From NCBI GenBank assembly GCA_963727505.1, contig CAVSGP010000015.1:32001-96000 (forward strand): 64,000 nucleotides of DNA, in the 5' to 3' direction. The notes under the pieces were generated by a model, which saw nothing but the letters and a program-made list of their open reading frames with translations, did no database searches and was not told where the DNA came from. A program made the translations under genes and the position numbers. This stretch comes from an uncultured Trueperaceae bacterium (GTDB taxonomy: Bacteria; Deinococcota; Deinococci; Deinococcales; Trueperaceae). This document shows positions 41,838-56,271 of this stretch, one piece after another (positions within the stretch are counted from its first letter, which is position 1; the number at the start of each line of letters is the position of its first letter).

Positions 41838-42595
41838 CGGCGGCCCCTCGCCCGGCCGCGAGCACGCGCTCGAGCGCCGCCAGGGTCCTGATCGTCGAGG
41901 ACGAGGCGGGGCTGGCCGCTGTGCTGGCCGACAACCTACGCGAAGAGGGGCTGGCCGTGAGCACGGCGCCCGACGGGGTGACCGGGGAACAGATGTGGGC
42001 CGACGAGCGCCCCGACCTGGTGGTCCTCGACGTGATGCTGCCCCGCCTCGACGGCTTCGCGCTGTGCGAACGCATGCGCGACGCCGGCTACGACACGCCG
42101 GTGCTCTACCTCAGCGCCCGCGGCGAGGCCGACGACCGCGTGCGCGGCCTGCGCGTCGGGGGCGACGACTACCTCCCCAAGCCCTTCCACCTGCCGGAGT
42201 TCCTGCTGAGGGTCAAGGCGCTGCTCCGCCGCCGTGGCTGGGCCCGGGAAGCGCCGCGCGCCGGCTTCCGCTTCGCCGGCCACTTCGTCGACTACCGCTC
42301 CTGGACCGCCGAGCTGGCCGGCGGCGGGCACGAGCCGCTGGGCGAGCGCGAGCTGGGCATCTTCCGGGTGCTGGCCGAGCGCGCCGGTGAGGTGGTGAGC
42401 CGCGACGACATCCTGGACGCCGTCTGGGGCGACGACGCCTTCCCGTCCAGCCGCACCGTGGACAACTTCGTACTGCGCCTGCGCAAGCTGTTCGAACCCG
42501 ATCCCTCCGCGCCGCGCTACTTCCATACCGTCTGGGGCGTGGGGTACCGCTTCACGCCCGACGGCGAGGCCGAGGAGGCCGCCTACGATGCCTGA
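41834..42595 (+). CDS. OmpR/PhoB family response regulator
   Basis: LIVEDE, LDVMLP, DDYLPKPF, RTVDNFVLRLRK, TVWGVGYRF. Confidence 0.94.
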   Translation: MTAAPRPAASTRSSAARVLIVEDEAGLAAVLADNLREEGLAVSTAPDGVTGEQMWADERPDLVVLDVMLPRLDGFALCERMRDAGYDTPVLYLSARGEADDRVRGLRVGGDDYLPKPFHLPEFLLRVKALLRRRGWAREAPRAGFRFAGHFVDYRSWTAELAGGGHEPLGERELGIFRVLAERAGEVVSRDDILDAVWGDDAFPSSRTVDNFVLRLRKLFEPDPSAPRYFHTVWGVGYRFTPDGEAEEAAYDA

Positions 42596-43676
42596 CGCGA
42601 CCACCGACGAGCCCCTCTTCCTGCGCGCCGCCCGCGGCGAGGACACGCCGCGCGCTCCGATCTGGATCATGCGTCAGGCGGGCCGCTACCTGCCCGAGTA
42701 CCGCGCCCTGAAGGAGCGTCACAGCTTCTGGGAGATGGTGCGCACGCCCGAGCTCGCCGTCGAGGTCACCCTGCAGCCCGTGAAGCGCTTCTCGCTGGAC
42801 GCCGCCATCCTGTTCAGCGACATCATGACGCCGCTGCCCCCGATGGGCGTCGCCATCGAGTTCGACCCCGGGCCGGTGTTCGCCGAGCCGCTGCGCACGC
42901 GCGCGCAGGTCGACGCGCTGGACGTGCCCGATGGGGGAGAGCTGGCCCCGTTCGTGGCCGACGCACTGCGGCTGCTGCGCGCGGCTTCGCCGGTGCCCGT
43001 GATCGGCTTCGGCGGAGCGCCCCTGACGCTGGCCGCCTACGCCGTACAGGGCGGCGGCAGCAAGGACTTCGCGGCCTTCCGCGGCTTCCTCCGCGCCGAG
43101 CGCGCCGCCGCCCACGCCCTGCTGGAGAAGCTGGCCGAGGTGACGCTGCGCTACCTGCGCATGCAGGTGGACGCCGGCGCGCAGGCGCTGCAACTCTTCG
43201 ATTCCTGGGCGGGCTTGCTCGACGAGCGCAGCTACCGCGAGTTCGGCCAACCCTACGCGCAGCGCGTGCTGGAGGGGCTCTCCGATACGGGTGTGCCGCG
43301 CATCTACCTGGCGGTCGACGCCGGCCACCTCTACCCGGCCATCGACGAGCTGCCCGCGGACGTCATCAGCGTCGACTGGCGCCGTCCGCTCTCCGCCGTG
43401 CGCCGCGTGCTGCCGGGCAAGGCGCTGCAGGGCAACCTCGACCCCGCCGCCCTGCTGGGGCCGCAAGAGGAGCTGGCGCAGGAGGCCGAGCGGGTGCTGC
43501 ACGAGGGGCTCGGCGGTCCGCACGTCTTCAACCTCGGCCACGGCATCCTGCGGCAGACCGACCCCGATGCCGTGGCGCGGCTGATCGACGTGGTACACGG
43601 TTTCGACCGGCGCGCCGCGGCCTGGGGCGACACGCTGCCCCGGCGTCCGTCCACGGCCGGCGGAGGCCGCGCATGA
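42588..43676 (+). CDS. hemE: Uroporphyrinogen decarboxylase
   Basis: PIWIMRQAGRYLPEY, AILFSDI, QLFDSWAG, LQGNLDP, FNLGHGI. Confidence 0.97.
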   Translation: MPDATTDEPLFLRAARGEDTPRAPIWIMRQAGRYLPEYRALKERHSFWEMVRTPELAVEVTLQPVKRFSLDAAILFSDIMTPLPPMGVAIEFDPGPVFAEPLRTRAQVDALDVPDGGELAPFVADALRLLRAASPVPVIGFGGAPLTLAAYAVQGGGSKDFAAFRGFLRAERAAAHALLEKLAEVTLRYLRMQVDAGAQALQLFDSWAGLLDERSYREFGQPYAQRVLEGLSDTGVPRIYLAVDAGHLYPAIDELPADVISVDWRRPLSAVRRVLPGKALQGNLDPAALLGPQEELAQEAERVLHEGLGGPHVFNLGHGILRQTDPDAVARLIDVVHGFDRRAAAWGDTLPRRPSTAGGGRA

Positions 43677-44671
43677 GCCGGCGCGAGCGCGTCGTCGAGG
43701 TCATGCGCGCCGGGCAGGCCGCGCTGATCGACGGCTTCGAGGCGATCGACGGCGAGGGCCGCTTCCTGGAGCACGCCTGGGAGCGCCCCGGCGGAGGCGG
43801 CGGCAGCGCGCGGGTGCTCGAGGGGGGCCGCGTGTTCGAGCGCGCCGGGGTCAACCTCTCGGTCGTGCACGGCGAATCCGTCCCGGACAGCCTGGCCCGC
43901 CAGCACCCCTCCGCTGCCGGTAAGCCCTTCTTCGCCACCGGGGTGTCGATGGTCCTGCACCCGGCGAACCCCTACGTGCCGGCCTTCCACGCCAACTTCC
44001 GCTACTTCGAGACCGGCCCAGCGGAGCACACAGGGAACGGCACAGGGAGCGACGCAGGGAACGAAGCTGCGGACGACCCCGACGCGATCTGGTGGTTCGG
44101 CGGCGGCGCCGACATGACGCCCAGCTACCCCTTCGCCGAGGACGCCGTGCACTTCCATCGCAGCCTCCAGGCGCTCTGCGAGCGGCACGCCGAGGTGGCC
44201 GACTACCCGCGCTGGAAGGCGACCTGCGACGACTACTTCACCATCCGGCATCGCGGCGAGATGCGCGGCGTGGGCGGCATCTTCTTCGACGAGATCAGCG
44301 CTCCGGAGGCCGGCGACTTCGCCGGCGAGCTGGCGTTCGTCGAGGACGGCCTCGGGTCGCTACTGGACAGCTACCTGCCGGTGGTGGGGCGCCGGGCGGA
44401 GCTGCCGTTCGGCGAGCGCGAGCGCGACTGGCAGCTCTACCGCCGGGGTCGCTACGTCGAGTTCAACCTGGTCTACGATCGGGGGACCCTGTTCGGGCTG
44501 CAGACGAAGGGCAACATCGAGGCCATCCTCATGTCGATGCCGCCGCTGGCGCGTTGGACCTTCGACCTGCACCCCGAACCCGCGACCCCCGAGGAGCAGG
44601 CGCTGGCCTTCTTCCAACCGCGCGACTGGGCGGGCGCGGAGGCGCAGGCGCTCGAGGACGGCACGCCGTGA
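43673..44671 (+). CDS. hemF: Oxygen-dependent coproporphyrinogen III oxidase
   Basis: VFERAGVN.S, HPANPYVP..HAN.R, WWFGGGAD.TP, RGVGGIFFD, RRGRYVEFNLVYDRGTLFGL. Confidence 0.96.
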   Translation: MSRRERVVEVMRAGQAALIDGFEAIDGEGRFLEHAWERPGGGGGSARVLEGGRVFERAGVNLSVVHGESVPDSLARQHPSAAGKPFFATGVSMVLHPANPYVPAFHANFRYFETGPAEHTGNGTGSDAGNEAADDPDAIWWFGGGADMTPSYPFAEDAVHFHRSLQALCERHAEVADYPRWKATCDDYFTIRHRGEMRGVGGIFFDEISAPEAGDFAGELAFVEDGLGSLLDSYLPVVGRRAELPFGERERDWQLYRRGRYVEFNLVYDRGTLFGLQTKGNIEAILMSMPPLARWTFDLHPEPATPEEQALAFFQPRDWAGAEAQALEDGTP

Positions 44672-44755
44672 CCGGCGAACGACGCGTCGCGGTGCGCCCC
44701 AGCCGGCAGCGGCTCGGCAGCTGCCGCGCCAGACCCCTGAGAGGACGGTGACCGC

Positions 44756-45868
44756 ATGGGCAACGGACCCACGGGAATCGTGATGATGAACCTGGGAGGG
44801 CCGAAGGACCTGAGCGAGGTCCAGCCCTTCCTGCTCGAGCTCTTCGCCGACCGCGAGATCATCCAGCTGCCGGCGCAGGACTGGCTCGGCCCCTTCATCG
44901 CCCGCCGCCGCACGAAGAGCGTGCAGCGCAACTACACCGACATCGGCGGCGGCTCGCCCATCCTGAAGTGGACCGAGGAGCAGGGGAGAGGGATGGTCGA
45001 GCGGCTCGATCGGCTGTCGCCCGACACCGCGCCGCACAAGTTCTACGTGGCGTTCCGCTACGTCAACCCCAAGAGCGAGGACGCACTGAAGGCCATGAAG
45101 GCCGACGGCGTGACGCGGGCGGTGGCGTTCACGCAGTACCCGCAGTTCTCTTGCTCGACCACCGGCTCGTCGCTCAACGAGCTGTGGCGCGCCGCCACGC
45201 GCCTCGACCTGGCGGACGCCTTCGACTGGAGCGTGTTGGACCGCTGGCCCACCCATCCCCGGTTCGTCGAGGCGATGGCGAAGACGGTCGAGGACGGCCT
45301 GGCGCAGTTCAGCGAGGACGACCGCGAGGACGCCCTGATCGTGTTCAGCGCGCACTCCCTGCCGATGAGCGTGATCAACCGCGGCGACGCCTACCCCGGC
45401 GAGATCGGCGCCACCGTCCACGAGGTCATGGAGCGCCTGGACTACGGCTACGAGTACATGATCAGCTACCAGAGCTCGGTCGGGCCGGTGCCCTGGCTGG
45501 GGCCTTCGACCGAGCAGGTGGTCAAGGACCTCGGCGCCAAGGGCCGCAAGAACGTGCTGGTGGTGGGCATCGCCTTCACCAGCGACCACATCGAGACGCT
45601 CCACGAGCTCGACATCGAGTACGGCGAGCTGGCCCACGAGGTCGGTGTCACCAACTTCAAGCGCGCGCCTGCCCTGAACGGGCTACCGCTCTTCCAGGAC
45701 GCGCTCGCCGAGGTCGTGGCCGAGCACCTCGCCTCCGGCGAGGCGTGCACCCGCCAGTACGGCCTTCGTTGCCCGGGCTGCACCAACGAGCAGTGCCGCG
45801 CCATCCTGAACCCGATCGCAAGCTACCGCCGCACGCCGCTCGGCGCGAACGGCAAGGGGCGGACCTGA
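44756..45868 (+). CDS. hemH: Ferrochelatase with animal-type [2Fe-2S] Cys motif
   Basis: MMNLGGP, GGGSPI, FTQYPQFSCSTTGSSLN, FSAHSLP, GDAYP, WLGP, FTSDHIETLHELD, C-terminal CPGCTNEQC. Confidence 0.95.
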   Translation: MGNGPTGIVMMNLGGPKDLSEVQPFLLELFADREIIQLPAQDWLGPFIARRRTKSVQRNYTDIGGGSPILKWTEEQGRGMVERLDRLSPDTAPHKFYVAFRYVNPKSEDALKAMKADGVTRAVAFTQYPQFSCSTTGSSLNELWRAATRLDLADAFDWSVLDRWPTHPRFVEAMAKTVEDGLAQFSEDDREDALIVFSAHSLPMSVINRGDAYPGEIGATVHEVMERLDYGYEYMISYQSSVGPVPWLGPSTEQVVKDLGAKGRKNVLVVGIAFTSDHIETLHELDIEYGELAHEVGVTNFKRAPALNGLPLFQDALAEVVAEHLASGEACTRQYGLRCPGCTNEQCRAILNPIASYRRTPLGANGKGRT

Positions 45869-46101
45869 GTCGGTCACGAGGCGAACCGGACGAGAGCCGG
45901 GCGCGAACCATACGCGAAGCAGGCGCGGTCCTGACGCGGCCCTGTTCCGATCCGTGCCCCTGACGCGCCCCTGACGTGCCCCTGACGTGCCCCCACGACC
46001 CGCCCTCCGGGCACCAGCCGAGACCCCGTTGACGACGACCTAGCGCGCCGCGCCGCGCTCCCGCCGGCCCCCTAGCCTTCTCCCAGGAGAGGAGGTGGGC
46101 C

Positions 46102-47037
46102 GTGGGGCGCGGCGGCATCGAACGGACCGGCAAGCACGGGGGTGCGGCGGCCCGCGGCAGGACGGCCCGGGGTGGGGCGGCCCGCGGCAGGACGGGCCGC
46201 CGTGCAGCGGCGCCAGGCGCGACCGCGCAGCCTGCGGCGCCGCGTGCCGTGCAGCGTGCGGTGCAGCGGGGCGTGCAGCGTGCGGTGCAGCGGGGCGCGA
46301 CGCCGCCGGGCACGCCGGCGCGGGGCGCGCGCGTCGCCAATCTCGTCGGCGCCTGCTTCGCGGTTGCGCTCCTGGCCGCCGGCCCCGGCGTCAGCGCGCT
46401 CGGCGTGGCCCGCAGCATGCGGTGGCGGGCACGTCCCTACCTCGTCGCGCCGGGGTCGGCCGCTCTCCCCAGTGCGTTGCTCCAGCGCGGCCCGCAAGAC
46501 TGCGGGCCGGCGGCGCTCGCCACCGTGCTCGCCTGGCGCGGTCGCCCGGTGGGGGAGGGGCCGATCCTCCGCGTCGCTCACCTGCGCGCCGACGGGGTCA
46601 GCCTCGCCGAGTTGGTGCGGCTGGCGGCCGCGTTCGAGCTGCCGGGCGCCTGGTACGCCGTTCCCCGTCGGAGACTCGACACGCTCCCGACGCCCTTCAT
46701 CGCGCATGTGCGGGCGGGTCGTCACCTCTTCGGCCTTCCTGCCGGAGACGGCGGGCCCGAGCACTTCGTCGCGGTGCGCCGGGTGCTACGTGGGTTCGTC
46801 CTCCTGGCCGATCCGGCGCGCGGGCTGGTGCTCGAGCGCGAGGCGCGCTTCGCACGCTCCTGGACCGGCCGCGTCCTGCTCTTCGACGCGGTGGTGGCAG
46901 CGGTGGTGGCAGTCGCGGGGTCCCGCGCACCGCTCGCTTCGCACAGCGCTTGGCAGAACACCGCCCAGAACGCCGCCCAGAAGGCGGCCCAGAAGGCCCG
47001 GCAGAACACCGTGGCGGCCCCGGAGGGAGCGCCGTGA
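46102..47037 (+). CDS. Stand-alone C39 family cysteine peptidase (double-glycine leader peptidase-like), no ABC domain
   Basis: Q-x4-DCGPAAL, G.SLAELVRLA, HFVAV, LADPARG (Q/C/H/D catalytic set); hydrophobic N-terminal segment; SD AGGAGG before GTG 46102. Confidence 0.85.
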   Translation: MGRGGIERTGKHGGAAARGRTARGGAARGRTGRRAAAPGATAQPAAPRAVQRAVQRGVQRAVQRGATPPGTPARGARVANLVGACFAVALLAAGPGVSALGVARSMRWRARPYLVAPGSAALPSALLQRGPQDCGPAALATVLAWRGRPVGEGPILRVAHLRADGVSLAELVRLAAAFELPGAWYAVPRRRLDTLPTPFIAHVRAGRHLFGLPAGDGGPEHFVAVRRVLRGFVLLADPARGLVLEREARFARSWTGRVLLFDAVVAAVVAVAGSRAPLASHSAWQNTAQNAAQKAAQKARQNTVAAPEGAP

Positions 47038-48704
47038 GGGCCACCGGTCGCATCGGTCGCGTGCTCGGCCGCGTCCCGGGCCGCGCGCTGGGGCACGTGC
47101 TGGGACACGTGCTGGCCCGCCGCCCCTGGGCCGGCGCACTCGCCAGCGGCGCTCTGCTCGTCGTCGCCGCCCGCCCCTGGGGCACGGCATGGCTGGCGAC
47201 GGCATGGCTGGCGACCGTGGCCCTCGTTCCGCTGCTCGCCGCGCTGCGCTCGGAACGGAGCGCCACGCGGGCGGCGCTCCTGGTCGCCGTCACGGTATCG
47301 GGCGCCGCCTACGTGGTCTACGAGGCGCTCGGCCCGTTCACGCCGGCGCTGGTGCCGCTCCTGGCGGCGGCCGCCACCCTCCCCTTCGCCGCGGCCGGCG
47401 CGCTCGCGCCGCGCCTGCGCAGGGCGCTGGGCACCCGCGCCCTGCTGGCCACGTTCCCGCTCTTGTGGCTGGCGGCCGAGGCGCTGCCGGGCCGGAGCTG
47501 GCTGCTGGGCCCGTTCGCCACGCCGCTGTTCGCGGTGGGCTACAGCCAGGCCGGCCTGCCCGCCATGCACTTGGCCCGCTTCGGGGGCGTCGAGGCCGTA
47601 GGGCTGGCGGTGCTGGCCTGCAACGCGCTGCTGGTCCTGGCGCTCGTCGAGCGCGCCGGCTGGGCCTGGGGAGTGCTGGCGGCGCTGGGCGCCGCGGTGG
47701 CAGTGGCGGCGCTCACGGCGCCCGCCCCGCTCGACGACGTGCACGTGCTCGGCACGGGAACGCTGGGCACGGGGCGTGTGGGCACGGGGCCAATCGGCAC
47801 GGGACCAATCGGCACGGGGCCGGTCGATGCCGCGGTGGGCCCAAGAGTGCGCGACGCGGCGACGCCCGACGCGGCGACCCCCGACGCAACGACGCCCGTC
47901 GTGGCCGCCGTCCGCGTGGTGCAGGCGGCCCTGCCCGACGCAGCCTATGCCGCGGCCGCGGCGCTTCCCGCCGCCCGCGCGGCCCTGCTGCGCTCCATCG
48001 TGGCCGGCGCGCTCGCCGCGCCGCTGCCCGCCGGTGCCGGCCTGACGGTCGCGCCCGAGGGCGCGCTCCCCGGTCCGCTGCCGGAGCGTGGGAGCAGCGG
48101 GCTCGAGCCTCTGCTCGCAGGGTTGGGGCCGGCCCTGCTGGGCGGCGCAGCGTACGTCGAGGGGGGCATCGCCAACGCCGCCTTCGCCTGGCGGGACGGC
48201 ACGCTGACACGCGTCTACGCCAAGCAACATCTCGCTCCCATCACTGAGGCCTCCCTCGTACCAGGCCGGAAACCCGGCCTGGTGGCGATCGGCGGCGTGC
48301 GCGTGGCTCCGCTGATCTGCTTCGAGGCGGCCTTCCCCGAGCTGGCGCGGCGCGCGGCCCGCGACGGCGCCCAGCTTCTGGCCGTCCTCACCAACGACGC
48401 CTTCGGGCGCTACCTCGGCACCCCCTGGCAGCACCTCCGCATGGCCCGCTTCCGCGCGGTGGAGACCGGCCGGCCGCTGGCGTTCGCCTCGAACGCCGGT
48501 CCCAGCGCCGTCGTGGACGGTGCCGGGCGCGTCCTCACGCGAACCGCGATCGGTCGGCCCGCCGTGGCCGTGGCCATGGCGAGGCTCGATACCCGGCCGA
48601 CCCCCTACCTCCGGTGGGGGGGCTGGCCGGGCACGCTCGCGCTGGTGGGCAGCGGCCTGCTGGCGCTCGTGGCGGGGGCGAAGGGAGGTCCGCCCAGGCC
48701 CTGA
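47034..48704 (+). CDS. Apolipoprotein N-acyltransferase (Lnt)-like membrane nitrilase-family protein
   Basis: N-terminal TM helices, VGYSQ, catalytic E (APEGAL), K (YAKQHLAP), C (LICFEAAFP), TNDAFG, QHLRMARFRAVETGRP. Confidence 0.85.
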   Translation: MRATGRIGRVLGRVPGRALGHVLGHVLARRPWAGALASGALLVVAARPWGTAWLATAWLATVALVPLLAALRSERSATRAALLVAVTVSGAAYVVYEALGPFTPALVPLLAAAATLPFAAAGALAPRLRRALGTRALLATFPLLWLAAEALPGRSWLLGPFATPLFAVGYSQAGLPAMHLARFGGVEAVGLAVLACNALLVLALVERAGWAWGVLAALGAAVAVAALTAPAPLDDVHVLGTGTLGTGRVGTGPIGTGPIGTGPVDAAVGPRVRDAATPDAATPDATTPVVAAVRVVQAALPDAAYAAAAALPAARAALLRSIVAGALAAPLPAGAGLTVAPEGALPGPLPERGSSGLEPLLAGLGPALLGGAAYVEGGIANAAFAWRDGTLTRVYAKQHLAPITEASLVPGRKPGLVAIGGVRVAPLICFEAAFPELARRAARDGAQLLAVLTNDAFGRYLGTPWQHLRMARFRAVETGRPLAFASNAGPSAVVDGAGRVLTRTAIGRPAVAVAMARLDTRPTPYLRWGGWPGTLALVGSGLLALVAGAKGGPPRP

Positions 48705-48744
48705 CGTCGCTATGGCTCACGCCTCACGCCCCTTGGGAGGAAGC

Positions 48745-49557
48745 ATGTACCGACTCCGGCTCCGTCAAGACCCTGTCGGCAGCGCGCCCGATCAGCTCGC
48801 CCCGGCCCGCGCCGCCACCCGAACCGGCACGCGCCATGGCACGCGCCCTTCCGGCGCGACCCGCGCCCTGGTCATCGCCCTGGTCCGCGCCGCGTTCCTC
48901 GTCACGGCCCTGCTCGCCTCCGCGAGCCTCGCCGCCACCACCGTTCCGGCCTCGGAGGGTGGGCACCGTTCCCACCCCGCGCGCGCCGGCGCCGAAGCGC
49001 TCCACCTCGCCGCGCTCGACATCACCTTGTACCGCGTCGCGCCCGACGACCTCGCCCGCATCCACGGCGGGTTCTGTACCACCTGCTCGGACGGCGGTGG
49101 CGGGGGCGGCGGCGGAGGCGGCACCGGCTCCAGCGGCTCGCCCACCGCGACCGGAACTCCCTACTGGGAGACCTACCGCGTGTCGCTCAGCTCGAGCTCC
49201 ACGACGCCCTCGTCGCTGGTCAACAAGATCAACAATTACTCCGACTACCTCATCAACGGCACCTTCCAGTACACGCGCAAGATCGTGCGGGACGTGCAGT
49301 TCTCCGGTGGATACGCCAGCTTTGTGAAGGCGTCCATCGGCGGCGAAGTGAGCGAGTCCATCCAGACCTCGGTCACCTACCCGATCGCGGCGCACACCTA
49401 CGGCAAGCTCTACGTGAAGTACCGGACCGAACGACGAACCTACTACGGGCACGAGTACCAGGACTTCACCGACGGCACCCGAACCGTGGTGGGCAGTGAG
49501 TCGGGCCCCTACCTCAGCACCTCGACCGTCCTCGGCTACGTGACGGGCGCGCTGTAG
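48745..49557 (+). CDS. Exported precursor protein: signal-like segment, double-glycine motif, CxxC, poly-Gly linker and Ser/Thr/Tyr-rich beta domain
   Basis: SD GGGAGG; hydrophobic segment ending ASLA|A; VAPDDLARIHGG (GG at 49066-49071) followed by FCTTCSDG10. Confidence 0.8.
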   Translation: MYRLRLRQDPVGSAPDQLAPARAATRTGTRHGTRPSGATRALVIALVRAAFLVTALLASASLAATTVPASEGGHRSHPARAGAEALHLAALDITLYRVAPDDLARIHGGFCTTCSDGGGGGGGGGGTGSSGSPTATGTPYWETYRVSLSSSSTTPSSLVNKINNYSDYLINGTFQYTRKIVRDVQFSGGYASFVKASIGGEVSESIQTSVTYPIAAHTYGKLYVKYRTERRTYYGHEYQDFTDGTRTVVGSESGPYLSTSTVLGYVTGAL

Positions 49558-49624
49558 CGGCGCGCGGCGGCCGCTGGGGACGCGTCGCGTCCCCGGCGGC
49601 ACGCCGAACCGAAAGGAGAGATCC

Positions 49625-50695
49625 ATGTCCAGCCCGCACGCAGAAGCGGGCCCCGGTCCCGCGGGTCTCCTCGAAGCGATCGGCTGCATGATCAAGACGG
49701 CCACCACCAGCGCCGTCTCCAGCACCGTCGCCAGCACCGTCGCCAGCACCGTCGCCACTGCCATCCTGGCCCTCGCCGTCGCCGCGGGCCCGTCGACGGC
49801 CCGGGCCGAGGCCGGCCTCACGCTCGCCCCGGGCATCGCTTTCGCCTGGACCGCTCCCACCGCCGAAGGGCTGCTGACGTTCCGGTTCGAGCGCGGGCCC
49901 TCGCCCCGGGAGCCGATCACGGGTGTCGGTGTCACCGCACGCCATCTCACGATCACCGGCTACCGGCTGGGGCCCGATGACGACCGGCTCAGCCTGCGCG
50001 TCCGCGCCGACGCGACCGGCGTGATCGAGGTGCCGTCATTGGTGATCCGCACCCGCTACGCGCCCCCGCAGCGGCTCCGAACCGGTGCCGCCGAGGTGAT
50101 CGCGCTGACGCGGGCGGACGGCCCGCTGCGGCTCATGAGTTGGACGAGCGACGACGAGCTGGGTCTGTACGCGGTCTTCGCGCTGGTCAACGACGCGGCG
50201 GTTCCCGTGACGGTGCGGAGCCTGCGCTACGCACCGGAACCGCTGGACCGTGGCCTGGCGCTGGTGGGGACGGGCCCTCCGGCCTCGTTCCCCGCCTGGA
50301 AGACGGCCGTGCTGCGACGCATGGCGCCCGCCTTCGCCGCCTACCTCGAGGGCCATGGGCGAACATCCGCCATGTCGGCCCGGCCGGTGCCACCGCCCTC
50401 GCTGGCCTTCCCGCTGCGCGGCGACCTCGCCGGAGCGTCGTGGAACGCGCCCGACGCGCTCGCGGTGCAGCTCGAGCCGGGCGCCGCCCTCTTCGTCGCC
50501 ATCACCCCCGCCGCCTTCAAGAGCTACGTGCACGACCTGGCCATCCACGCGTCGCCGGTGGTGGGATTCACGCTCGGGGCCGACGCGGATTGTTGCGAGC
50601 TCCAGGGCGTCCCTGCCGCGATCCAGCACCCGCCGCGGCTCCCTCCGTCCGGCGCACGGTCGCGCAGGGCAGGGCCGCACAGGGCAGGGCGATGA
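49625..50695 (+). CDS. Hypothetical exported protein
   Basis: SD AAAGGAG; hydrophobic segment AILALAVAAGPSTARA; stop overlaps the next start (ATGA). Confidence 0.65.
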   Translation: MSSPHAEAGPGPAGLLEAIGCMIKTATTSAVSSTVASTVASTVATAILALAVAAGPSTARAEAGLTLAPGIAFAWTAPTAEGLLTFRFERGPSPREPITGVGVTARHLTITGYRLGPDDDRLSLRVRADATGVIEVPSLVIRTRYAPPQRLRTGAAEVIALTRADGPLRLMSWTSDDELGLYAVFALVNDAAVPVTVRSLRYAPEPLDRGLALVGTGPPASFPAWKTAVLRRMAPAFAAYLEGHGRTSAMSARPVPPPSLAFPLRGDLAGASWNAPDALAVQLEPGAALFVAITPAAFKSYVHDLAIHASPVVGFTLGADADCCELQGVPAAIQHPPRLPPSGARSRRAGPHRAGR

Positions 50696-52038
50696 GCGCG
50701 CTCACCCGGGGCGGCGGCGTCAGGCACGTCAACGCCCCGGCCGCCACCCTGGCCGCGATCCTGGCCGCCGTCCTTCCGTCGGTCGCGGTGGCGGCCGCCC
50801 CGGCGTGGCTCACCGACGTCAGGGACGCCGCCTACTCCCGCGCACGAGCGCCCCTGGAGGGCGAGATCCTCGACGCCGCCGTGCGAGAACGGCGGCGCGC
50901 CGCCGCGGGCGCGCTCCCATCGCTCCGCCTCAACGAACGCAGCCATCTGGGGCTCGACGGCGTCTACGGGCTCACGCTGGACGCCGGCGTCGCCATCCCC
51001 CTCCTGGCCCCCACGGTCCCGGCCGATGCCCTCGTCACGACGCTGCGCCTCGCCATCACCCGGCGCCAGCTCGCCGCCCAGCGTCGGGCCGAGGTCCATG
51101 ACGCTCTCGCTCAGGCCGCCGCGCTGCTGGCCGCGCGGGCGCGCAGGCGGGCTCTGGACGGCCTCGCGAGCGCACTCGCTGGCCGCGGCCCGCCCGCGGG
51201 TGCCGGCAGCCGCATGCCCGGCCGAGCCGAGACGCCGGCTCGGTTCGGCGCGGACACCTCCCCGAGCCTGACGAGCGACCGCATGCGCGCCGTCGTCGAC
51301 GCCCGCCTCCTGCTGGCCGGGCGCGAAGCTCAGGGGAGGGAAGCGCGGCGTACGCGCGCGGAGCTCGTGAGGTCGTTGTCGCTCACGCTGCCCGCCGTCG
51401 ATCGGCTGGCCGCTCCACCGCGGGCTGCCCACGGTCCCCTGCTCGGCGTGCTCGGCTTCACCGCGGCCGAGCTCCAGCCACGCCGTTGCCAGGTCGCCAG
51501 CGACGCGGTCGTGCTGGCCCACCTGTCCGCAGCCGAGCAGCGCGCCAGTAGCCGTCTCCGGGAGGCACGTGCGGCGCCGCGGGTCGACCTCGAGCTCGGT
51601 GGCGCGGTCGATCTCGGCGGCACCGAGCCCGTCGCCCGCTACACCTTGCGCGTGGCCGCTTCGGTCCGGCTTCCGCCGTGGAGCCCCGCTTCGGGCGCCG
51701 CCTCGCTGTCTGCCGGCGCGTCGGGCCTGGAGCAGGAGACGACGCTGACCTGGCCGAACCGCACGCCCGGACCGCCGCCGCCACCGGGCCCCTCGACGGA
51801 TCCTGTCGTCGAGGCGGAGCGCGCCGTGCGCGCCCAGCTCGCTCGCCTGCAGGGCCAGGAGGCTGACCTGGCGCGCCGCCGCGCCGTGCTTCGTGCGGCG
51901 CTGGCGACCGTTCGCGGCGATCCGCCCGACGGTGCCTACCTGCGCGCCACCCTCGCGCTACAGCTCGCCGACACCGAGCAGGCCCTCGACCTCACCGCGC
52001 TCGACGCAGCCCTGTTGTGCAGCGCGCTGCCCCCGTGA
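50692..52038 (+). CDS. Divergent TolC/outer-membrane efflux-like protein
   Basis: Signal peptide; two repeats of helix-P.L.L beta hairpin (LPSLRLN...GLTLDAGVAIPLL; APRVDLELGG...LRVAASVRLP) followed by long Ala/Arg/Leu coiled-coil helices. Confidence 0.5.
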   Translation: MSALTRGGGVRHVNAPAATLAAILAAVLPSVAVAAAPAWLTDVRDAAYSRARAPLEGEILDAAVRERRRAAAGALPSLRLNERSHLGLDGVYGLTLDAGVAIPLLAPTVPADALVTTLRLAITRRQLAAQRRAEVHDALAQAAALLAARARRRALDGLASALAGRGPPAGAGSRMPGRAETPARFGADTSPSLTSDRMRAVVDARLLLAGREAQGREARRTRAELVRSLSLTLPAVDRLAAPPRAAHGPLLGVLGFTAAELQPRRCQVASDAVVLAHLSAAEQRASSRLREARAAPRVDLELGGAVDLGGTEPVARYTLRVAASVRLPPWSPASGAASLSAGASGLEQETTLTWPNRTPGPPPPPGPSTDPVVEAERAVRAQLARLQGQEADLARRRAVLRAALATVRGDPPDGAYLRATLALQLADTEQALDLTALDAALLCSALPP

Positions 52039-53738
52039 TCGACCAGGAACCGGACCGAGACGCCGGCCCACCGCGTCCCTCCCCGGCGACGGGCGGCGTC
52101 GCCGCCGCGCGCCTCCCGGTCCGGTATCGTGCTGGACGTGGACGACCCCCGTCAGGACCCCGGGCGACGCACCGTGGACCCTGCCCACGTGGACCCAGCC
52201 CAGTGGACCCTGCCCCCGAGCGGTCCGGGGGCACGGCGCGCCCGCGAGTTTCACGTCCGCGCCGCGTGGGCGTGGTCGGCGCCGGCATCACCGGGCTGAC
52301 GGCCGCCTACCGCCTGGAACGCAATCACCCGGATTGGGAGGTGGTCGTGTTCGAGGCCGAACCGCACGTAGGCGGCAAGGCGCGCACCTCCGTGAAGGAC
52401 GGCTACACCGTCGATTGGGGGCCCAACGGGTTCCTCGCGTCCGCGCCGGAGACGCTGGACCTCGTGCGCGACCTCGGCCTGGACGAAGCGCTCCAGCCCG
52501 CCGCCGACAGCGCGCGCCGGCGCTTCCTCTACCGCGACGGCAGCCTGCGACCCCTGCCCACGAGCCCGCCGGGCTTCCTCGCCAGCGAGGTCGTGCCCCT
52601 CCACGGGCGCGTGCGGGCCGCGCTGGAGGTCGTGCTGGCGTCCCGCGGCGCCGGCGAGGAGACCGTCCACGCTTTCCTGGCGCGGCACTTCGGGCGCAGC
52701 TTCGCCGATGCGCTGGCCGACGCCTTCGTCTCGGGCGTCACCGCCGGCGACGCGCGCGAGCTGAGCGTCGACGCGCTGTTCCCGCGCCTTCGAGCCCTGG
52801 AGCGCGGGCACCGGAGCCTCGTGCGGGCGATGATCGCGCAGCAGCAAGCGGCGAGACGCGCGCGCACAGCGGCCGATCCGGCGCGGGAAGCGACCATCCC
52901 GAGCGGCCGCCTGACGTCGTTCCGGGGCGGCGGCATGCAGCGCCTGGTCGACGCGCTTCGCGCCGCGCTGAAGGGCGAGGTCCGTCTCGGCACGCGCGTC
53001 GAGGGGCTCGAGCCTCTCGGCAGCGAGCACGTTGGCGGGCCCGGCGACGGGGACCGTGACGGGAACCGCTACCGCCTCCGGGTCGCCGCTGTCGCGCCGG
53101 CCCAGGTATCGCGGACCGGCGCGGCAGGGCGCGCCGGAGGCAGCTTCGATGCCTTCGACGACGTCGTCCTCACCACTCCGGCAGCGGCCACCGCGGCGCT
53201 GCTGCGGCCGCACCTCCCGGCCGCCGCCGAGGCGCTGGCCGCCATCCCCTACGCCGGCGTGCGCGTCTTCGGCCTCGGCTTCGACCGCATCGACGTTCCG
53301 CGCGCGCTCGACGGCTTCGGCTTCCTGGTGCCGCGCGGGCAGGGCGTGCGCAGCCTCGGGGTGCTGTGGACCTCGAGCCTCTACCCCGAGCGCGCGCCGG
53401 CGGGAAAGGTGCTCCTCAGGGTGCTGGCGGGCGGACGGCTCGACCCCTCGATGCTCGAGCTCGACGACGATGCGGCGCTCGCCAGCGTGCGACGCGACCT
53501 CCGCGTCAGCATGGGCATCACCGTGGCGCCGTCGTTCGTGGAGACGGTGCGCTGGCCGCAGGCCATCCCCCAGTACACGCTGGGCCACGCCGAACGCCTC
53601 AGCGCCGTCGAGGTGGCGCTCGAAGCGCTGCCCGGCGTCCACCTGGCGGGCAACGCCTACCGCGGGGTAGGCGTCAACGACTGCGTGCGGGATGCGGTGC
53701 GGGTGGAAGAGCTGCTGTCCGGCGGACGCTCCGCCTGA
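52035..53738 (+). CDS. hemY: HemY-type protoporphyrinogen/coproporphyrinogen oxidase (start uncertain)
   Basis: VVGAGITGLTAAY, GG.ART, DWGPNGF, GFGFLVPR, RWPQAIPQY..GH, AGNAYRGVGVNDC. Confidence 0.92.
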   Translation: MIDQEPDRDAGPPRPSPATGGVAAARLPVRYRAGRGRPPSGPRATHRGPCPRGPSPVDPAPERSGGTARPRVSRPRRVGVVGAGITGLTAAYRLERNHPDWEVVVFEAEPHVGGKARTSVKDGYTVDWGPNGFLASAPETLDLVRDLGLDEALQPAADSARRRFLYRDGSLRPLPTSPPGFLASEVVPLHGRVRAALEVVLASRGAGEETVHAFLARHFGRSFADALADAFVSGVTAGDARELSVDALFPRLRALERGHRSLVRAMIAQQQAARRARTAADPAREATIPSGRLTSFRGGGMQRLVDALRAALKGEVRLGTRVEGLEPLGSEHVGGPGDGDRDGNRYRLRVAAVAPAQVSRTGAAGRAGGSFDAFDDVVLTTPAAATAALLRPHLPAAAEALAAIPYAGVRVFGLGFDRIDVPRALDGFGFLVPRGQGVRSLGVLWTSSLYPERAPAGKVLLRVLAGGRLDPSMLELDDDAALASVRRDLRVSMGITVAPSFVETVRWPQAIPQYTLGHAERLSAVEVALEALPGVHLAGNAYRGVGVNDCVRDAVRVEELLSGGRSA

Positions 53739-53848: not shown

Positions 53849-54700
53849 TCAGTACACGGTGCTCCCGTTGTACGTGAGGCTGAAGCTGTTGCAACCCGTG
53901 TAGTTGATGGCCATCGTGTTGCCCGAGGTGTCCTTGTAGTTCACCGTGCCGCTGTCGAAGCCGCCGCACGAGTTCGAGTAGTGGACGCCGCCGGACTGAC
54001 GGGTCAGCTCGTAGGTGCCGTCGCTGTCCTGGAAGGTCACCTTGCCGTCGAACATGAAGGTGCCGGCGTCGAACGGATTGGTGGTCCCGGCATCGGCCAT
54101 GTACGTCGGGGTGCCCTGCACCTCGAAGGACGCGTTGCCGCTCGAGTCGGAGACGTCGATGCGGAAGTCGTAGCTCAGCGCATAGTCGCCCGGGGCGTTC
54201 CTGGTGAGATCCCAGGTCAGGTTCTCCGTGAAGCTACTGGTACCGCTACTGTCGGTGAGCGTCATCTTGAGGTCCTTGATGGTCGCCGTGGTTCCGCTGT
54301 AGGGGTCGGCGTCGTTCTTGTCCTGCTCCGTCATGGAACCGGTGATCGAGTACGTGGTCCCGCCACTGGAGTTGCTGCAGTTGTAGGTAACGGTGGCGTT
54401 CGCGTACCAACCATCGCCGTCGGCGTCAACGGGACTGGCGGGGCTGCTCGTCGTGCAACTCGCTTGCGGCTGGAGCCCCGCGACACCCAGCGTCTGGAGG
54501 CCGATGCTCATCGGCGAGAACCCGGTCGGCGAGATCATGCTCGCCACGAGCTGATCGCCGATCAGCCCGGTGCTCGCCACCTGCGTCGCCGCCGCCTGGG
54601 TGAGCGGCTTCACGGGCGGGGTCGCGGAACCACAGCTCGCCAGAAGGATCGTCAAGACCACGCTCGACGCGGCGAGGATGCCAACAGAAATGCGTCTCAT
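53849..54700 (-). CDS. Hypothetical beta-rich lipoprotein
   Basis: Signal peptide with lipobox LAS|C; SD AAAGGAGA; Ser/Thr-rich; DADGDG motif. Confidence 0.8.
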   Translation of the reverse strand: MRRISVGILAASSVVLTILLASCGSATPPVKPLTQAAATQVASTGLIGDQLVASMISPTGFSPMSIGLQTLGVAGLQPQASCTTSSPASPVDADGDGWYANATVTYNCSNSSGGTTYSITGSMTEQDKNDADPYSGTTATIKDLKMTLTDSSGTSSFTENLTWDLTRNAPGDYALSYDFRIDVSDSSGNASFEVQGTPTYMADAGTTNPFDAGTFMFDGKVTFQDSDGTYELTRQSGGVHYSNSCGGFDSGTVNYKDTSGNTMAINYTGCNSFSLTYNGSTVY

Positions 54701-54917: not shown

Positions 54918-55055
54918 GGCTGTGAATCGAACCGAGGGCCGGCCGCGAGGTCGGGCCCGGTCGTTGCATGTCGGATGGGTAAGACGGGAGGCGCCAACGC
55001 CTCGACACCCGCTCTTCGCATCCGACGCGCCGCAGCCACCAGCCTCGAAAGGAGG
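54918..55055 (+). ncRNA. Structured 5' leader of rpsF (candidate cis-regulatory RNA)
   Basis: Closing stem GGCTGTG/CGCAGCC, a GCGA-tetraloop hairpin, GTCGGATG/CATCCGAC stem with nested helices, and CCTC-GAAAG-GAGG hairpin over the SD. Confidence 0.4.
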
Positions 55056-55060
55056 TGCCT

Positions 55061-55408
55061 ATGTCCGATACGACCTACGACCTGAACGTCATCCTGGAAC
55101 CGAATCTGAGCGAGCAACAGCTCCAGACCGAGAAGGATGCCGTCACGGCCCAGGTGGAACGCGCCGAAGGAGAGATCGTGGGGTTGGACGAGTGGGGCAA
55201 CCGTCGCCTCGCCTATCCGATCCGCAAGCTCAACGAGGGCTACTACCTGATCTACCGCCTACGCCTTTCCAGCGAAAAGCCGAAGGCGATCGAAACCGCC
55301 TTGCGTCAGCGTGATAACGTGATGCGCGTACTGGTGGTCAAGGACCGTCCCGAGTGGAAGACCCGCAAGGAGTCGCGGGAGAAGGTGGAGGCCGAGGCCG
55401 GCGCCTAG
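55061..55408 (+). CDS. rpsF: 30S ribosomal protein S6
   Basis: YDLNVILEP, WGNRRLAYPIRK, GYY, VMRVLVVK; SD GGAGGT. Confidence 0.97.
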   Translation: MSDTTYDLNVILEPNLSEQQLQTEKDAVTAQVERAEGEIVGLDEWGNRRLAYPIRKLNEGYYLIYRLRLSSEKPKAIETALRQRDNVMRVLVVKDRPEWKTRKESREKVEAEAGA

Positions 55409-55449
55409 CCGGCAGCGCGCCCCGTCTTCCTTGAGTCGAGGAGAGCTCC

Positions 55450-56271
55450 ATGGCACGAGGCCTGAACAACGTGTACCTGGCCGGCACCCTGGTGCAGGCG
55501 CCCGAGTTGCGCTATACACCCGGCGGCCTGGCCATCCTGGAGCTCAACCTGGCGGGCAACGACCACGTCCTCGGGGACGACGAGAAGATGCGTGAGTTGG
55601 CCTGGTACCACCGCGTCACCGTCTTCGGTGCGCAGGGCGAGTCCCTGGTGAACCAGCTCGAGGCCGGTACGCCCGTGTTCGTGGAGGGCCGGCTCAACTA
55701 CCGCAGCTGGGAGTCGCAGGAGGGGCAGCGTCGCGCCGCACTCGACGTGGTGGCGCAGCGCGTCGAGGTCCTCACCGTCGGCGCGCGGGGTGCCGAGTCC
55801 ACCGTGACCGACGCGAAGGGTCAGCATCGCCTGCGCGACGCGCTCAACGAGGTGCTTGTCATCGGCAACCTCACGCGCGACGCGGAGCTGCGCTACACCC
55901 CCAGCGGCAGCGCCGTGACCCGCTTCAGCGTCGCCGTGAACGATCGCTTCCGCGACCGTAGCGGCAACGACCAGGAGCGCACGCACTACGTCGACATCAA
56001 CGTGTGGCGCGAGCTGGCGGAGGCCACCGCGGAGCTCTCCAAGGGCGACCCGGTGTTCGTGATCGGCCGCCTCGTCAACGACTCATGGACGGACAAGGAA
56101 GGAAATCGGCGGTTCACGACGCGCGTGGAAGGCTCGCGCGTCGAGTTCCTGACCCGCGGTCCCGGTAGTGGTGGAGCCGGGACCCGCCCCGAGAAGGTGT
56201 CTCAGGGTGCCCAGGCGAGTCAGCTTGACATCGATGAAGAGTTCCCACCGGAAGAGGATCTGCCTTTCTAG
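55450..56271 (+). CDS. ssb: Single-stranded DNA-binding protein, Deinococcus-Thermus two-OB-fold type
   Basis: Two tandem ELRYTP OB folds, acidic tail EEDLPF. Confidence 0.97.
   Translation: MARGLNNVYLAGTLVQAPELRYTPGGLAILELNLAGNDHVLGDDEKMRELAWYHRVTVFGAQGESLVNQLEAGTPVFVEGRLNYRSWESQEGQRRAALDVVAQRVEVLTVGARGAESTVTDAKGQHRLRDALNEVLVIGNLTRDAELRYTPSGSAVTRFSVAVNDRFRDRSGNDQERTHYVDINVWRELAEATAELSKGDPVFVIGRLVNDSWTDKEGNRRFTTRVEGSRVEFLTRGPGSGGAGTRPEKVSQGAQASQLDIDEEFPPEEDLPF

Follow-up and report, generated by a model that had tools for sequence, protein, structure and literature searches.

The Aat system of enteric Escherichia coli comprises AatD, an Lnt homolog, AatA, a TolC homolog, AatB and AatPC, and its substrates are CexE and dispersin (PMC7943197). 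CexE is exported by Sec and receives an acyl group on its N-terminal glycine from AatD; the TolC homolog belongs to the machine (PMC7943197). In the Fap amyloid system of Pseudomonas, FapD was shown experimentally to be an active periplasmic C39 peptidase; the same report describes the target of FapD as unclear, the periplasmic C39 class as uncharacterised and the Fap proteins as lacking a canonical double-glycine (GG) leader (PMC5557850). Here we describe five neighbouring genes on a 64,000-nucleotide stretch of DNA, the window, from an uncultured Trueperaceae bacterium of the phylum Deinococcota. They encode a C39 peptidase, a second apolipoprotein N-acyltransferase (Lnt2), a precursor (X), a conserved secreted protein (Y) and a predicted TolC-fold protein (Z). 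X is read as the precursor of a small aerolysin-fold protein that would be matured and routed by its four neighbour genes, and this reading was given an even chance. The five genes are arranged in the window as follows.

46102-47037, plus strand: stand-alone C39 cysteine peptidase, matching PF03412 with E 4.8e-16 over residues 127-262.
47040-48704, plus strand: Lnt2, divergent second apolipoprotein N-acyltransferase with a membrane part and a CN-hydrolase domain (TIGR00546, PF00795).
48745-49557, plus strand: X, precursor of 270 amino acids; the translation ends at a stop codon, and relatives and an AlphaFold2 model were obtained.
49625-50695, plus strand: Y, conserved secreted protein, open reading frame (ORF) of 356 amino acids with a signal peptide and a possible internal ATG start at 49688.
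50692-52038, plus strand: Z, predicted TolC-fold outer-membrane factor of 448 amino acids with a signal peptide; the first 4 nucleotides of the gene are shared with the end of Y.

Translation confirmed the layout given in the original prediction: a protein of 270 residues with a GG at 108-109 followed by FCTTCSD, ten glycines (G117-G126) and then TGSSGSP, and a Ser/Thr/Tyr-rich C-terminal part in which both quoted stretches, RDVQFSGGYASFVKASIGGEVSESIQTSVTYPI and AHTYGKLYVKYRTERRTYYG, were found. The sequence before the cut site reads ...DDLARIHGG, and a cut after G109 would give the 161-residue product beginning FCTTCSD that had been proposed. As judged from its sequence the X ORF is a real, conserved gene, because the same protein and relatives of it are present in protein collections. 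A word-indexed protein search returned 22 relatives at E <= 1e-25, with an identical entry of 270 amino acids in the protein collection, and an exhaustive search of 1.84 billion 50%-identity cluster representatives returned 20 representatives at E <= 0.001. The named relatives, few in number, came from metagenome-assembled genomes of Deinococcales or Trueperaceae. X is present in one copy in the source genome. An ORF of 410 amino acids on the opposite strand (48724-49956) was taken as the usual shadow frame of high-GC DNA.

Family alignments of 23 and subsequently 35 sequences showed conserved columns at G108, G109, C111, C114, W141, N164 and G199. All full-length members share one plan, namely an N-terminal signal, a spacer, the GG leader motif, a cysteine pair, a linker and a beta domain of about 135 residues. 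The spacer between signal core and leader motif is variable, from 16 to about 60 residues, and so is the length of the linker, which in relatives of X is poly-Asp/Glu, poly-Pro or mixed Gly/Ser. No family in Pfam or NCBIfam was matched by X. One member (P0037, residues 91-159) gave a weak match to DUF6426 (E 0.001, 19.2 bits against a cut-off of 25), a family of similar size at about 200 residues; no DUF6426 match was found anywhere in the source genome, even at E 10, and the P0037 match could be a remote sister family or noise. A metagenome scan gave 17 loci, and a scan with three remote members found no relative. The parts of X itself are located as listed below.

48859-48918, plus strand: hydrophobic region of a predicted Sec-type signal or signal anchor, about residues 39-58 (modelled helix 39-58, basic stretch before it).
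49036-49071, plus strand: double-glycine leader motif, residues 98-109 (V98, D102 L103, I106 H G108 G109).
49072-49086, plus strand: presumed new N-terminus F110, then C111-T-T-C114.
49093-49140, plus strand: low-complexity tether, Gly10 (117-126), then TGSSGS, with a predicted local distance difference test score (pLDDT) < 50.
49141-49554, plus strand: predicted aerolysin-fold beta module, residues 133-270 (AlphaFold2 model, Foldseek and VIA-align matches).
49285-49344, plus strand: candidate membrane-insertion loop, residues 181-200, hinged by two glycine pairs (AlphaFold2 model and conserved pattern).

The AlphaFold2 model of X was built from the 23-row alignment and was confident for residues 133-270 only, with pLDDT values of 82-96 in most 10-residue blocks of this part. 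Six long strands were observed in the model (135-153, 157-164, 170-184, 201-214, 218-241 and 246-269). A VIA-align search of 48,161 representative chains placed aerolysin-family proteins at all of ranks 1-13 (Z-scores 8.2-6.2), among them 6lhz (8.2 over 122 residues), 5zu4 (8.0) and 1w3a (7.5). Lysenin followed at rank 14 with a Z-score of 5.6, and unrelated folds appeared from about 3.6 down. Foldseek against the whole PDB gave 20 matches at E <= 0.001, the best with E 1.4e-5 and a top probability of about 1.0. The listed Foldseek matches all belonged to one superfamily: 3kog, parasporin-2, lamprey LIP, Dln1, epsilon toxin, Sarol-1, aerolysin, CPE, LSL and Cry23. Modelling residues 110-270 and searching with the structure was the check proposed along with the original prediction, and the confident part, 133-270, matched aerolysin-family pore-formers almost exclusively. 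From these models it is very probable that X 133-270 has the aerolysin fold. The weight of this assignment comes from the uniformity of the matches and the coverage of the whole domain, and not from the Z-score alone, because values of 6-8 lie, by the tool's own caveat, in a common range.

X is alike in predicted fold and size to the minimal aerolysin-family modules (Bombina 6lhz, LSL 1w3a, lamprey LIP 5zu4, Sarol-1 7qe3 and Bacteroides 3kog), with about 135 residues of long twisted, Ser/Thr-rich strands and a loop between two of them. X differs from this family in having no significant sequence similarity, no Pfam membership, no lectin or receptor-binding domain, a shorter loop and a unique N-terminal combination of Sec signal, double-glycine leader, cysteine pair and tether. 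The loop is the part of the module that could enter a membrane. Its low-confidence section, 185-200, joins two long strands of the model, and residues 181-200 (V-R-D-V-Q-F-S-G-G-Y-A-S-F-V-K-A-S-I-G-G) contain about 17 uncharged residues and one lysine, in a conserved, partly alternating hydrophobic pattern. When the X family profile was compared with PDB sequences the best matches, both non-significant, were the Sarol-1 pore module (E 0.033) and CPE residues 70-138 (E 1.7). In the CPE match the loop at about 181-200 aligned, with gaps, to CPE 81-106, and it aligned to the Sarol-1 pore module as well. CPE 81-106 is described as the TM1 region, which forms a membrane hairpin (PMC9501580). Pore formation by X is plausible on the modelled structure, at slightly below an even chance.

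Several observations count against an aerolysin-type pore-former. No sequence model recognised X: the ETX_MTX2 and Aerolysin models matched 0/35 members and NCBIfam gave no match. The evidence for the fold comes from a predicted and not a solved structure. Furthermore, the loop at 181-200 is shorter than known insertion hairpins, 26 residues in the case of CPE TM1, and hydrophobic and polar residues alternate only imperfectly in it.

In a distant subfamily of X an additional cysteine pair brackets the Gly-rich loop. If disulfide-bonded, it would clamp the base of the loop. The subfamily members are located as follows.

Locus L047, 6012-6605: distant-subfamily X with the extra cysteine pair.
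Locus L048, 5928-6563: the same.
Locus L049, 7328-7954, minus strand: the same.
Locus L055, 6215-6841: the same.

The N-terminal part of the precursor carries a Sec-type signal followed by a double-glycine motif. A basic and then hydrophobic N-terminus is present in every full-length relative of X, and the shorter members have classical signal peptides ending in an Ala-x-Ala site. Double-glycine leaders have a consensus of a hydrophobic residue at -12, an acidic residue at -8, Leu at -7, Ile or Val at -4 and Gly-Gly at -2/-1. Counted over 35 family members, L, V or I was found at -12 in 34, E or D at -8 in 27, L at -7 in 30 and V, I or L at -4 in 33; position -2 was G in 32 and A in three, and position -1 was G in 33 and A in two. 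The X family agrees with the leader consensus across these members, and residues 98-109 of X fit it, yet they sit behind a Sec-type signal. X shares this consensus with the class II bacteriocins and the substrates of peptidase-containing ATP-binding cassette (ABC) transporters such as LahT (6mpz), but it has a Sec signal ahead of the leader, a peptidase unattached to a transporter and, as cargo, a folded protein of 161 amino acids.

The product starting at F110 would carry two cysteines close to its N-terminus. C114 is invariant (35/35); C111 is present in 32/35 members, and in the other three the first cysteine lies one residue earlier. Both cysteines fall within six residues after the GG, as C-x-x-C or as C-x-x-x-C with the first cysteine immediately after the GG, and additional members read GGCxxxC or GGGCxxxC. 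The residue preceding C111 was T in 12, F in six and V in five of the 35 members. A classical lipobox stands directly after the hydrophobic core of the signal and has Gly, Ala or Ser before the cysteine. X is like substrates of the classical Lgt/LspA/Lnt pathway in having a cysteine near the mature N-terminus followed by a disordered tether, and it differs from them in having no lipobox, in having F, T, V, I or L before the cysteine in most members and in the position of the motif, 16-60 residues past the signal core. X was rejected as a classical Lgt/LspA lipoprotein for want of a lipobox and because of this downstream position. A type IV prepilin-like Gly/Phe site was likewise rejected, as no hydrophobic helix was seen by eye after F110.

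The peptidase that could cut X is encoded two genes upstream of it, and this linkage extends across genera. Its domain is preceded by a hydrophobic N-terminal segment (domain at 46480-46887 of the window), and the gene probably starts further in than the ORF does; alignment with relatives begins only at about residue 80-100. Its catalytic residues Cys, His and Asp line up with those of the LahT double-glycine protease domain (6mpz). Weak NCBIfam matches of the domain include bacteriocin ABC exporters, and the FapD model NF058616 scored the gene at 16.4 bits against a cut-off of 330. The protein and its C39 orthologs in two other loci (L034 and L070) start with a basic and then a hydrophobic segment. 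The C39 domain should face the periplasm because of this basic-then-hydrophobic N-terminal segment, as with FapD. The likeness to FapD extends to a stand-alone C39 peptidase without ABC fusion, encoded together with Sec-dependent secreted proteins and an outer-membrane channel. The channel of the Fap system is the FapF barrel, whereas Z has a predicted TolC fold, and X has the canonical GG leader that the Fap proteins lack. Cleavage of X at the GG by this C39 peptidase is considered likely on the basis of the motif and the gene.

Ahead of the C39 domain, at about 46100-46400, the long ORFs begin with short units that recur in translation, for example AVQRAVQRGVQRAVQRG in one frame; this points to a tandem DNA repeat that separates hemH from the true start of C39.

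A C39 peptidase together with a canonical leader could also mark X as the precursor of a classical double-glycine bacteriocin, in which case it would be cleaved on the cytoplasmic side and leave through a peptidase-containing ABC transporter; the weak exporter matches of the C39 domain fit this as well. However, a peptidase fused to an ABC exporter was not found in the source genome, whose only C39 match lies within a 334-aa open frame without an ABC part, behind the hydrophobic N-terminal segment. A Sec-type signal stands ahead of the leader in every full-length X member, and a beta-rich product of 161 residues is far larger than class II bacteriocins. The transporter-type bacteriocin reading conflicts with the anatomy of both X and C39; it was rejected and is held to be extremely improbable.

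Lnt2 passed the NCBI lnt model TIGR00546 with 140.7 bits against a cut-off of 132.9. Its start is inexact, and the gene abuts or overlaps the end of C39. Two Lnt genes are present in the source genome, scoring 268.8 bits (contig 2) and 150.2 bits. In our own alignment the Glu-Lys-Cys triad, which Lnt2 shares with the classical pathway, was present in 6/6 Lnt2 and 4/4 housekeeping Lnt sequences. Compared with the four housekeeping Lnts, all six Lnt2 are about 23 residues shorter between Lys and Cys. This gap lies at about 48120-48330 of the window (Lnt2 residues about 360-430) and may reshape the substrate entrance. The cysteine aligns with C387 of E. coli Lnt (5xhq); the N-terminal hydrolase part gave no useful alignment to the PDB, and there the triad was read from our own alignment. 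Both Lnt copies were clear in three of five related genomes, a fourth having a housekeeping copy truncated at the edge of a contig. The other copy, Lnt2, adjoins C39 in all four related genomes that have C39.

A cut by C39 would expose a free alpha-amine, the group that Lnt-type enzymes acylate. Lnt2 resembles AatD in being an Lnt-homologous acyltransferase with the catalytic residues, encoded beside a Sec-exported substrate in a set that contains a TolC-type protein. The present set differs from Aat in that C39, and not signal peptidase, would create the N-terminus, which is not a conserved glycine. The cargo is furthermore of aerolysin fold and not a small coat protein, the host belongs to the Deinococcota and not the Enterobacterales, and the acylation is one that we infer. 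N-terminal lipidation of X by Lnt2 is put forward tentatively, at somewhat less than an even chance.

An explanation without lipidation is that X is a secreted soluble pore-former, or a factor against competitors or predators, which is activated by C39 and never lipidated, the cysteine pair forming a disulfide cap while Lnt2 serves another substrate or modifies C39, Y or Z. The same evidence on fold and leader applies to this explanation, and aerolysin-family toxins are commonly activated by proteolysis. The lack of a lipobox and the position of the cysteine, which is not at +1 in most X members, favor it too, and in an exported protein cysteines spaced as C-x-x-C or C-x-x-x-C would naturally form a disulfide. 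The genomic pairing speaks against it. In all 36 genomes for which both places are listed, the ends of the C39 and Lnt2 matches are no more than 1.1 kb apart, always on the same contig and the same strand, and the two genes overlap in several. X directly follows C39-Lnt2 in every extended locus inspected, save where X-Y-Z moved as a block, and a pattern scan of six loci gave no other candidate substrate with a GG-Cys arrangement. The tether of X, moreover, varies in composition and is always of low complexity, as are lipoprotein tethers. X as a soluble, never-lipidated protein was considered unlikely.

Downstream of X, Y matched no Pfam or NCBIfam family (Pfam 0/15 family members), nothing was found among PDB sequences below E 0.25, and the best neighbour in the Atlas feature search, at 0.76, was not useful. 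The Y family is restricted to the same lineage as X in the family search. Matches of the Y hidden Markov model adjoin X in other loci, and comparison with the neighbour gene in locus L007 gave an hhalign Prob of 84% (E 7.5e-6). A complex prediction of X(110-270) with Y(62-340) had a score of 0.00, which bears neither way.

Z has invariant cysteines at C266 and C443. Its AlphaFold2 model, built from 18 sequences, had a pLDDT of 82 and a predicted template modelling score of 0.74. Foldseek matches listed for Z down to E 8e-3 were all of TolC/OprM/CusC/MtrE type, the best with E 6.4e-9 over about 475 columns, and the predicted fold has the beta strands and long helical hairpins, repeated twice, of a TolC protomer. 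The Atlas feature search placed Z at 0.97 to 'outer membrane efflux protein' clusters, a value that carries a caveat on family agreement. Z is a sequence-orphan outer-membrane factor, TolC-like by predicted fold only, and by that fold it corresponds to the TolC homolog of the Aat system. Counterparts of the Lol-like ABC transporter (AatPC) and the adaptor (AatB) were not found among the five genes. An involvement of Z in the export of X was judged slightly better than an even chance. A scan of 45800-52400 for promoters and terminators found nothing.

The five genes are kept as a set across many genera of one Deinococcota family. The order C39-Lnt2-X-Y-Z recurs in a row of haem genes, with hemE-hemF-hemH before it and hemY after it, in 6/7 genome loci, the seventh (L006) being interrupted by a contig end, and also in the metagenome loci that reach far enough. 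C39, Lnt2 and X are contiguous in eight loci, and Lnt2 and X in three more that are cut upstream. X, Y and Z are contiguous in eight loci, and two more loci that start inside or just after X hold Y and Z. Linkage among close relatives alone could be plain synteny. The five genes are nevertheless regarded as one system, because the halves stay intact when split, the set occurs in a new context and in changed order, and the arrangement survives deep divergence. Two genomes, G001 (locus L007) and G137, have the set divided between two contigs, with X-Y-Z unbroken on the first and C39-Lnt2 unbroken on the second; C39 overlaps Lnt2 in G001 and is adjacent to it in G137. Locus L070 has all five genes together outside the haem row, with a different upstream context. 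The point of insertion in the haem row recurs in most related loci, L070 and G001 being exceptions. X diverged to about 20-30% identity still directly follows Lnt2 in L047, L048, L049, L055 and L073-L076. In two genera the order is C39-Lnt2-X-Z-Y, at these positions.

Locus L073, 3706-9645, minus strand: gene set in the order X-Z-Y.
Locus L076, 50-6643, plus strand: gene set in the order X-Z-Y.

The X model matched 27 of 301 genomes sampled across the phylum, all of them in one family (26/102, plus the genome of the window). This number is an undercount, as an ORF-level search added G165 with a narrower model and G130, G166, G169 and G299 with a wider one. A C39 match was present in 24 of the 27 X-positive genomes. 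In the 103 genomes of the family, full-length Lnt2 matches (E < 1e-25) were almost confined to genera bearing C39, and in other genera only the C-terminal domain of the housekeeping Lnt matched Lnt2 (E 1e-12 to 1e-19). G234 has the C39-Lnt2 pair at a contig end, and the C39 peptidase of G186 is of ABC type. The X system is absent from many genera of the family; in two genera, for example, it was present in 0/8 and 0/6 sampled genomes.

Another explanation is that X is not a weapon but a housekeeping part of the envelope: for instance a lipid-tethered surface protein, an oligomeric channel in the bacterium's own outer membrane or a polymerising surface structure assembled by means of the aerolysin-like sheet. 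X is a single-copy gene in a stable position among the haem-biosynthesis genes and its four partners stay with it even where the family has diverged deeply. Small immunity-like genes, mobile elements and patchiness typical of toxins were not seen, and the insertion loop is short. The close structural matches, however, are all pore-formers acting on foreign membranes. Absence of the system from many genera of the family means that it is not essential, and nothing points to a filament. A housekeeping role was rated as quite unlikely.

In the window itself the set splits the haem-biosynthesis row into hemE, hemF and hemH upstream (42588-45868) and a protoporphyrinogen-oxidase-like hemY downstream (about 52290-53738). 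Beyond hemY, at 53849-54700 on the minus strand, a beta-rich protein of 283 amino acids with a classical lipobox (LLASC) is encoded, with no family match; relatives keep this gene after hemY, and in L003 and L058 it has undergone tandem duplication. At 55055-56271 on the plus strand an rpsF-like ORF is followed by a single-stranded-DNA-binding protein (SSB) of 273 amino acids that reads by eye as two OB-fold halves, an architecture which we take to be the Deinococcus-Thermus type. An SSB-like ORF is also found downstream of the gene set in L047, L049, L055 and L070.

Taken in order, X as a precursor matured and routed by its neighbours would follow a pathway of this kind. Sec would carry the precursor across the inner membrane. 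A periplasm-facing C39, like FapD, would cut after G109 and release the 161-aa product starting F-C-T-T-C. Lnt2 would then move a fatty acyl chain from a phospholipid onto the new N-terminus, paralleling AatD on CexE, and the resulting non-classical lipoprotein would be tethered by its Gly-rich segment. Transfer to the outer membrane, or across it, would fall to Y and the TolC-like Z. Once on the cell surface or on vesicles, the module with the aerolysin-like fold may form oligomers, and its Gly-hinged loop 181-200 may enter a target membrane. The most specific form of this pathway, a third lipoprotein route in which a periplasmic C39 cut, acylation of a non-lipobox N-terminus by Lnt2 and an ABC-independent Lnt2/Y/Z path lead to a lipid-tethered pore-former on the surface or on vesicles, is regarded as doubtful.

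The following points weigh against the pathway. Every biochemical step in it, the cleavage, lipidation and pore formation of X included, is one that we infer. The residue after the GG is variable, the cysteine is mostly at +2 and not at +1, and there is no lipobox; Lnt2 would on that account need an acceptor unlike that of any characterised Lnt. PF02321 (OEP) misses Z, and a genome-wide PF02321 search lists other loci only. Comparison of Z with four OEPs of the same genome gave an hhalign Prob of 0.3%, with Y and X as controls also negative, and hmmsearch of PDB sequences with Z found nothing. The Aat system and TolC-dependent systems normally need an ABC transporter and an adaptor, and TolC-type channels as a rule need an inner-membrane partner, whereas Pfam and NCBIfam searches with the proteins of the five-gene set revealed no ABC transporter or recognisable periplasmic adaptor. 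Three X-positive genomes that are 89-95% complete (G241, G276 and G305) have no C39 match, and G222 has an Lnt2-like gene with neither C39 nor X nearby. All the genomes belong to one family, so the conserved linkage partly reflects shared ancestry. Finally, the locus is stable, single-copy and inherited vertically, which suits an envelope function better than it does a typical toxin or bacteriocin. The Lnt2-like gene of G222 (L077, 3748-5157) is 37% identical to the hydrolase part of Lnt2, and neither C39 nor X was found in the surrounding 11 kb or among the matches of that genome.

The original prediction, a protease-activated and possibly lipid-anchored pore-forming toxin of the aerolysin or ETX/MTX2 kind or a large bacteriocin, was thus partly supported. 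Its fold was favored by the predicted structure. "Protease-activated" agrees with the canonical double-glycine motif and with the catalytically intact C39 encoded nearby, and "possibly lipid-anchored" was strengthened by a dedicated Lnt paralog that accompanies the C39 gene in every case. For its alternative, a polymerising surface fibre subunit, nothing was found that speaks for or against. Membership in ETX/MTX2 or Aerolysin by sequence model did not hold (0/35 members matched at E <= 1). "Large bacteriocin" was not supported: the locus is single-copy, syntenic and vertically kept in one family, which is unlike a typical bacteriocin or mobile toxin, and has no bacteriocin-type ABC export.

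The components of the set are of known kinds, and their combination appears to be new: a Sec signal with a GG leader, a periplasmic C39 peptidase with an Lnt paralog, an orphan TolC fold and an aerolysin-fold cargo. In the open-access full texts searched, no description was found that links a C39 peptidase with Lnt, or aerolysin with Truepera or with double-glycine C39 systems. With a textbook cleavage motif beside a C39 gene, X is a candidate substrate for enzymes of the FapD class, a question that is directly testable. If Lnt2 acylates cut X, a second and unrelated phylum would join that of AatD in having Lnt-family lipidation independent of the lipobox pathway, with an acceptor N-terminus made differently from that in the Aat case. 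The gene set may also indicate an ABC-independent use of a TolC-fold channel. For the Deinococcota, X would represent a sequence-orphan branch of the aerolysin-fold proteins with an unusual biogenesis.

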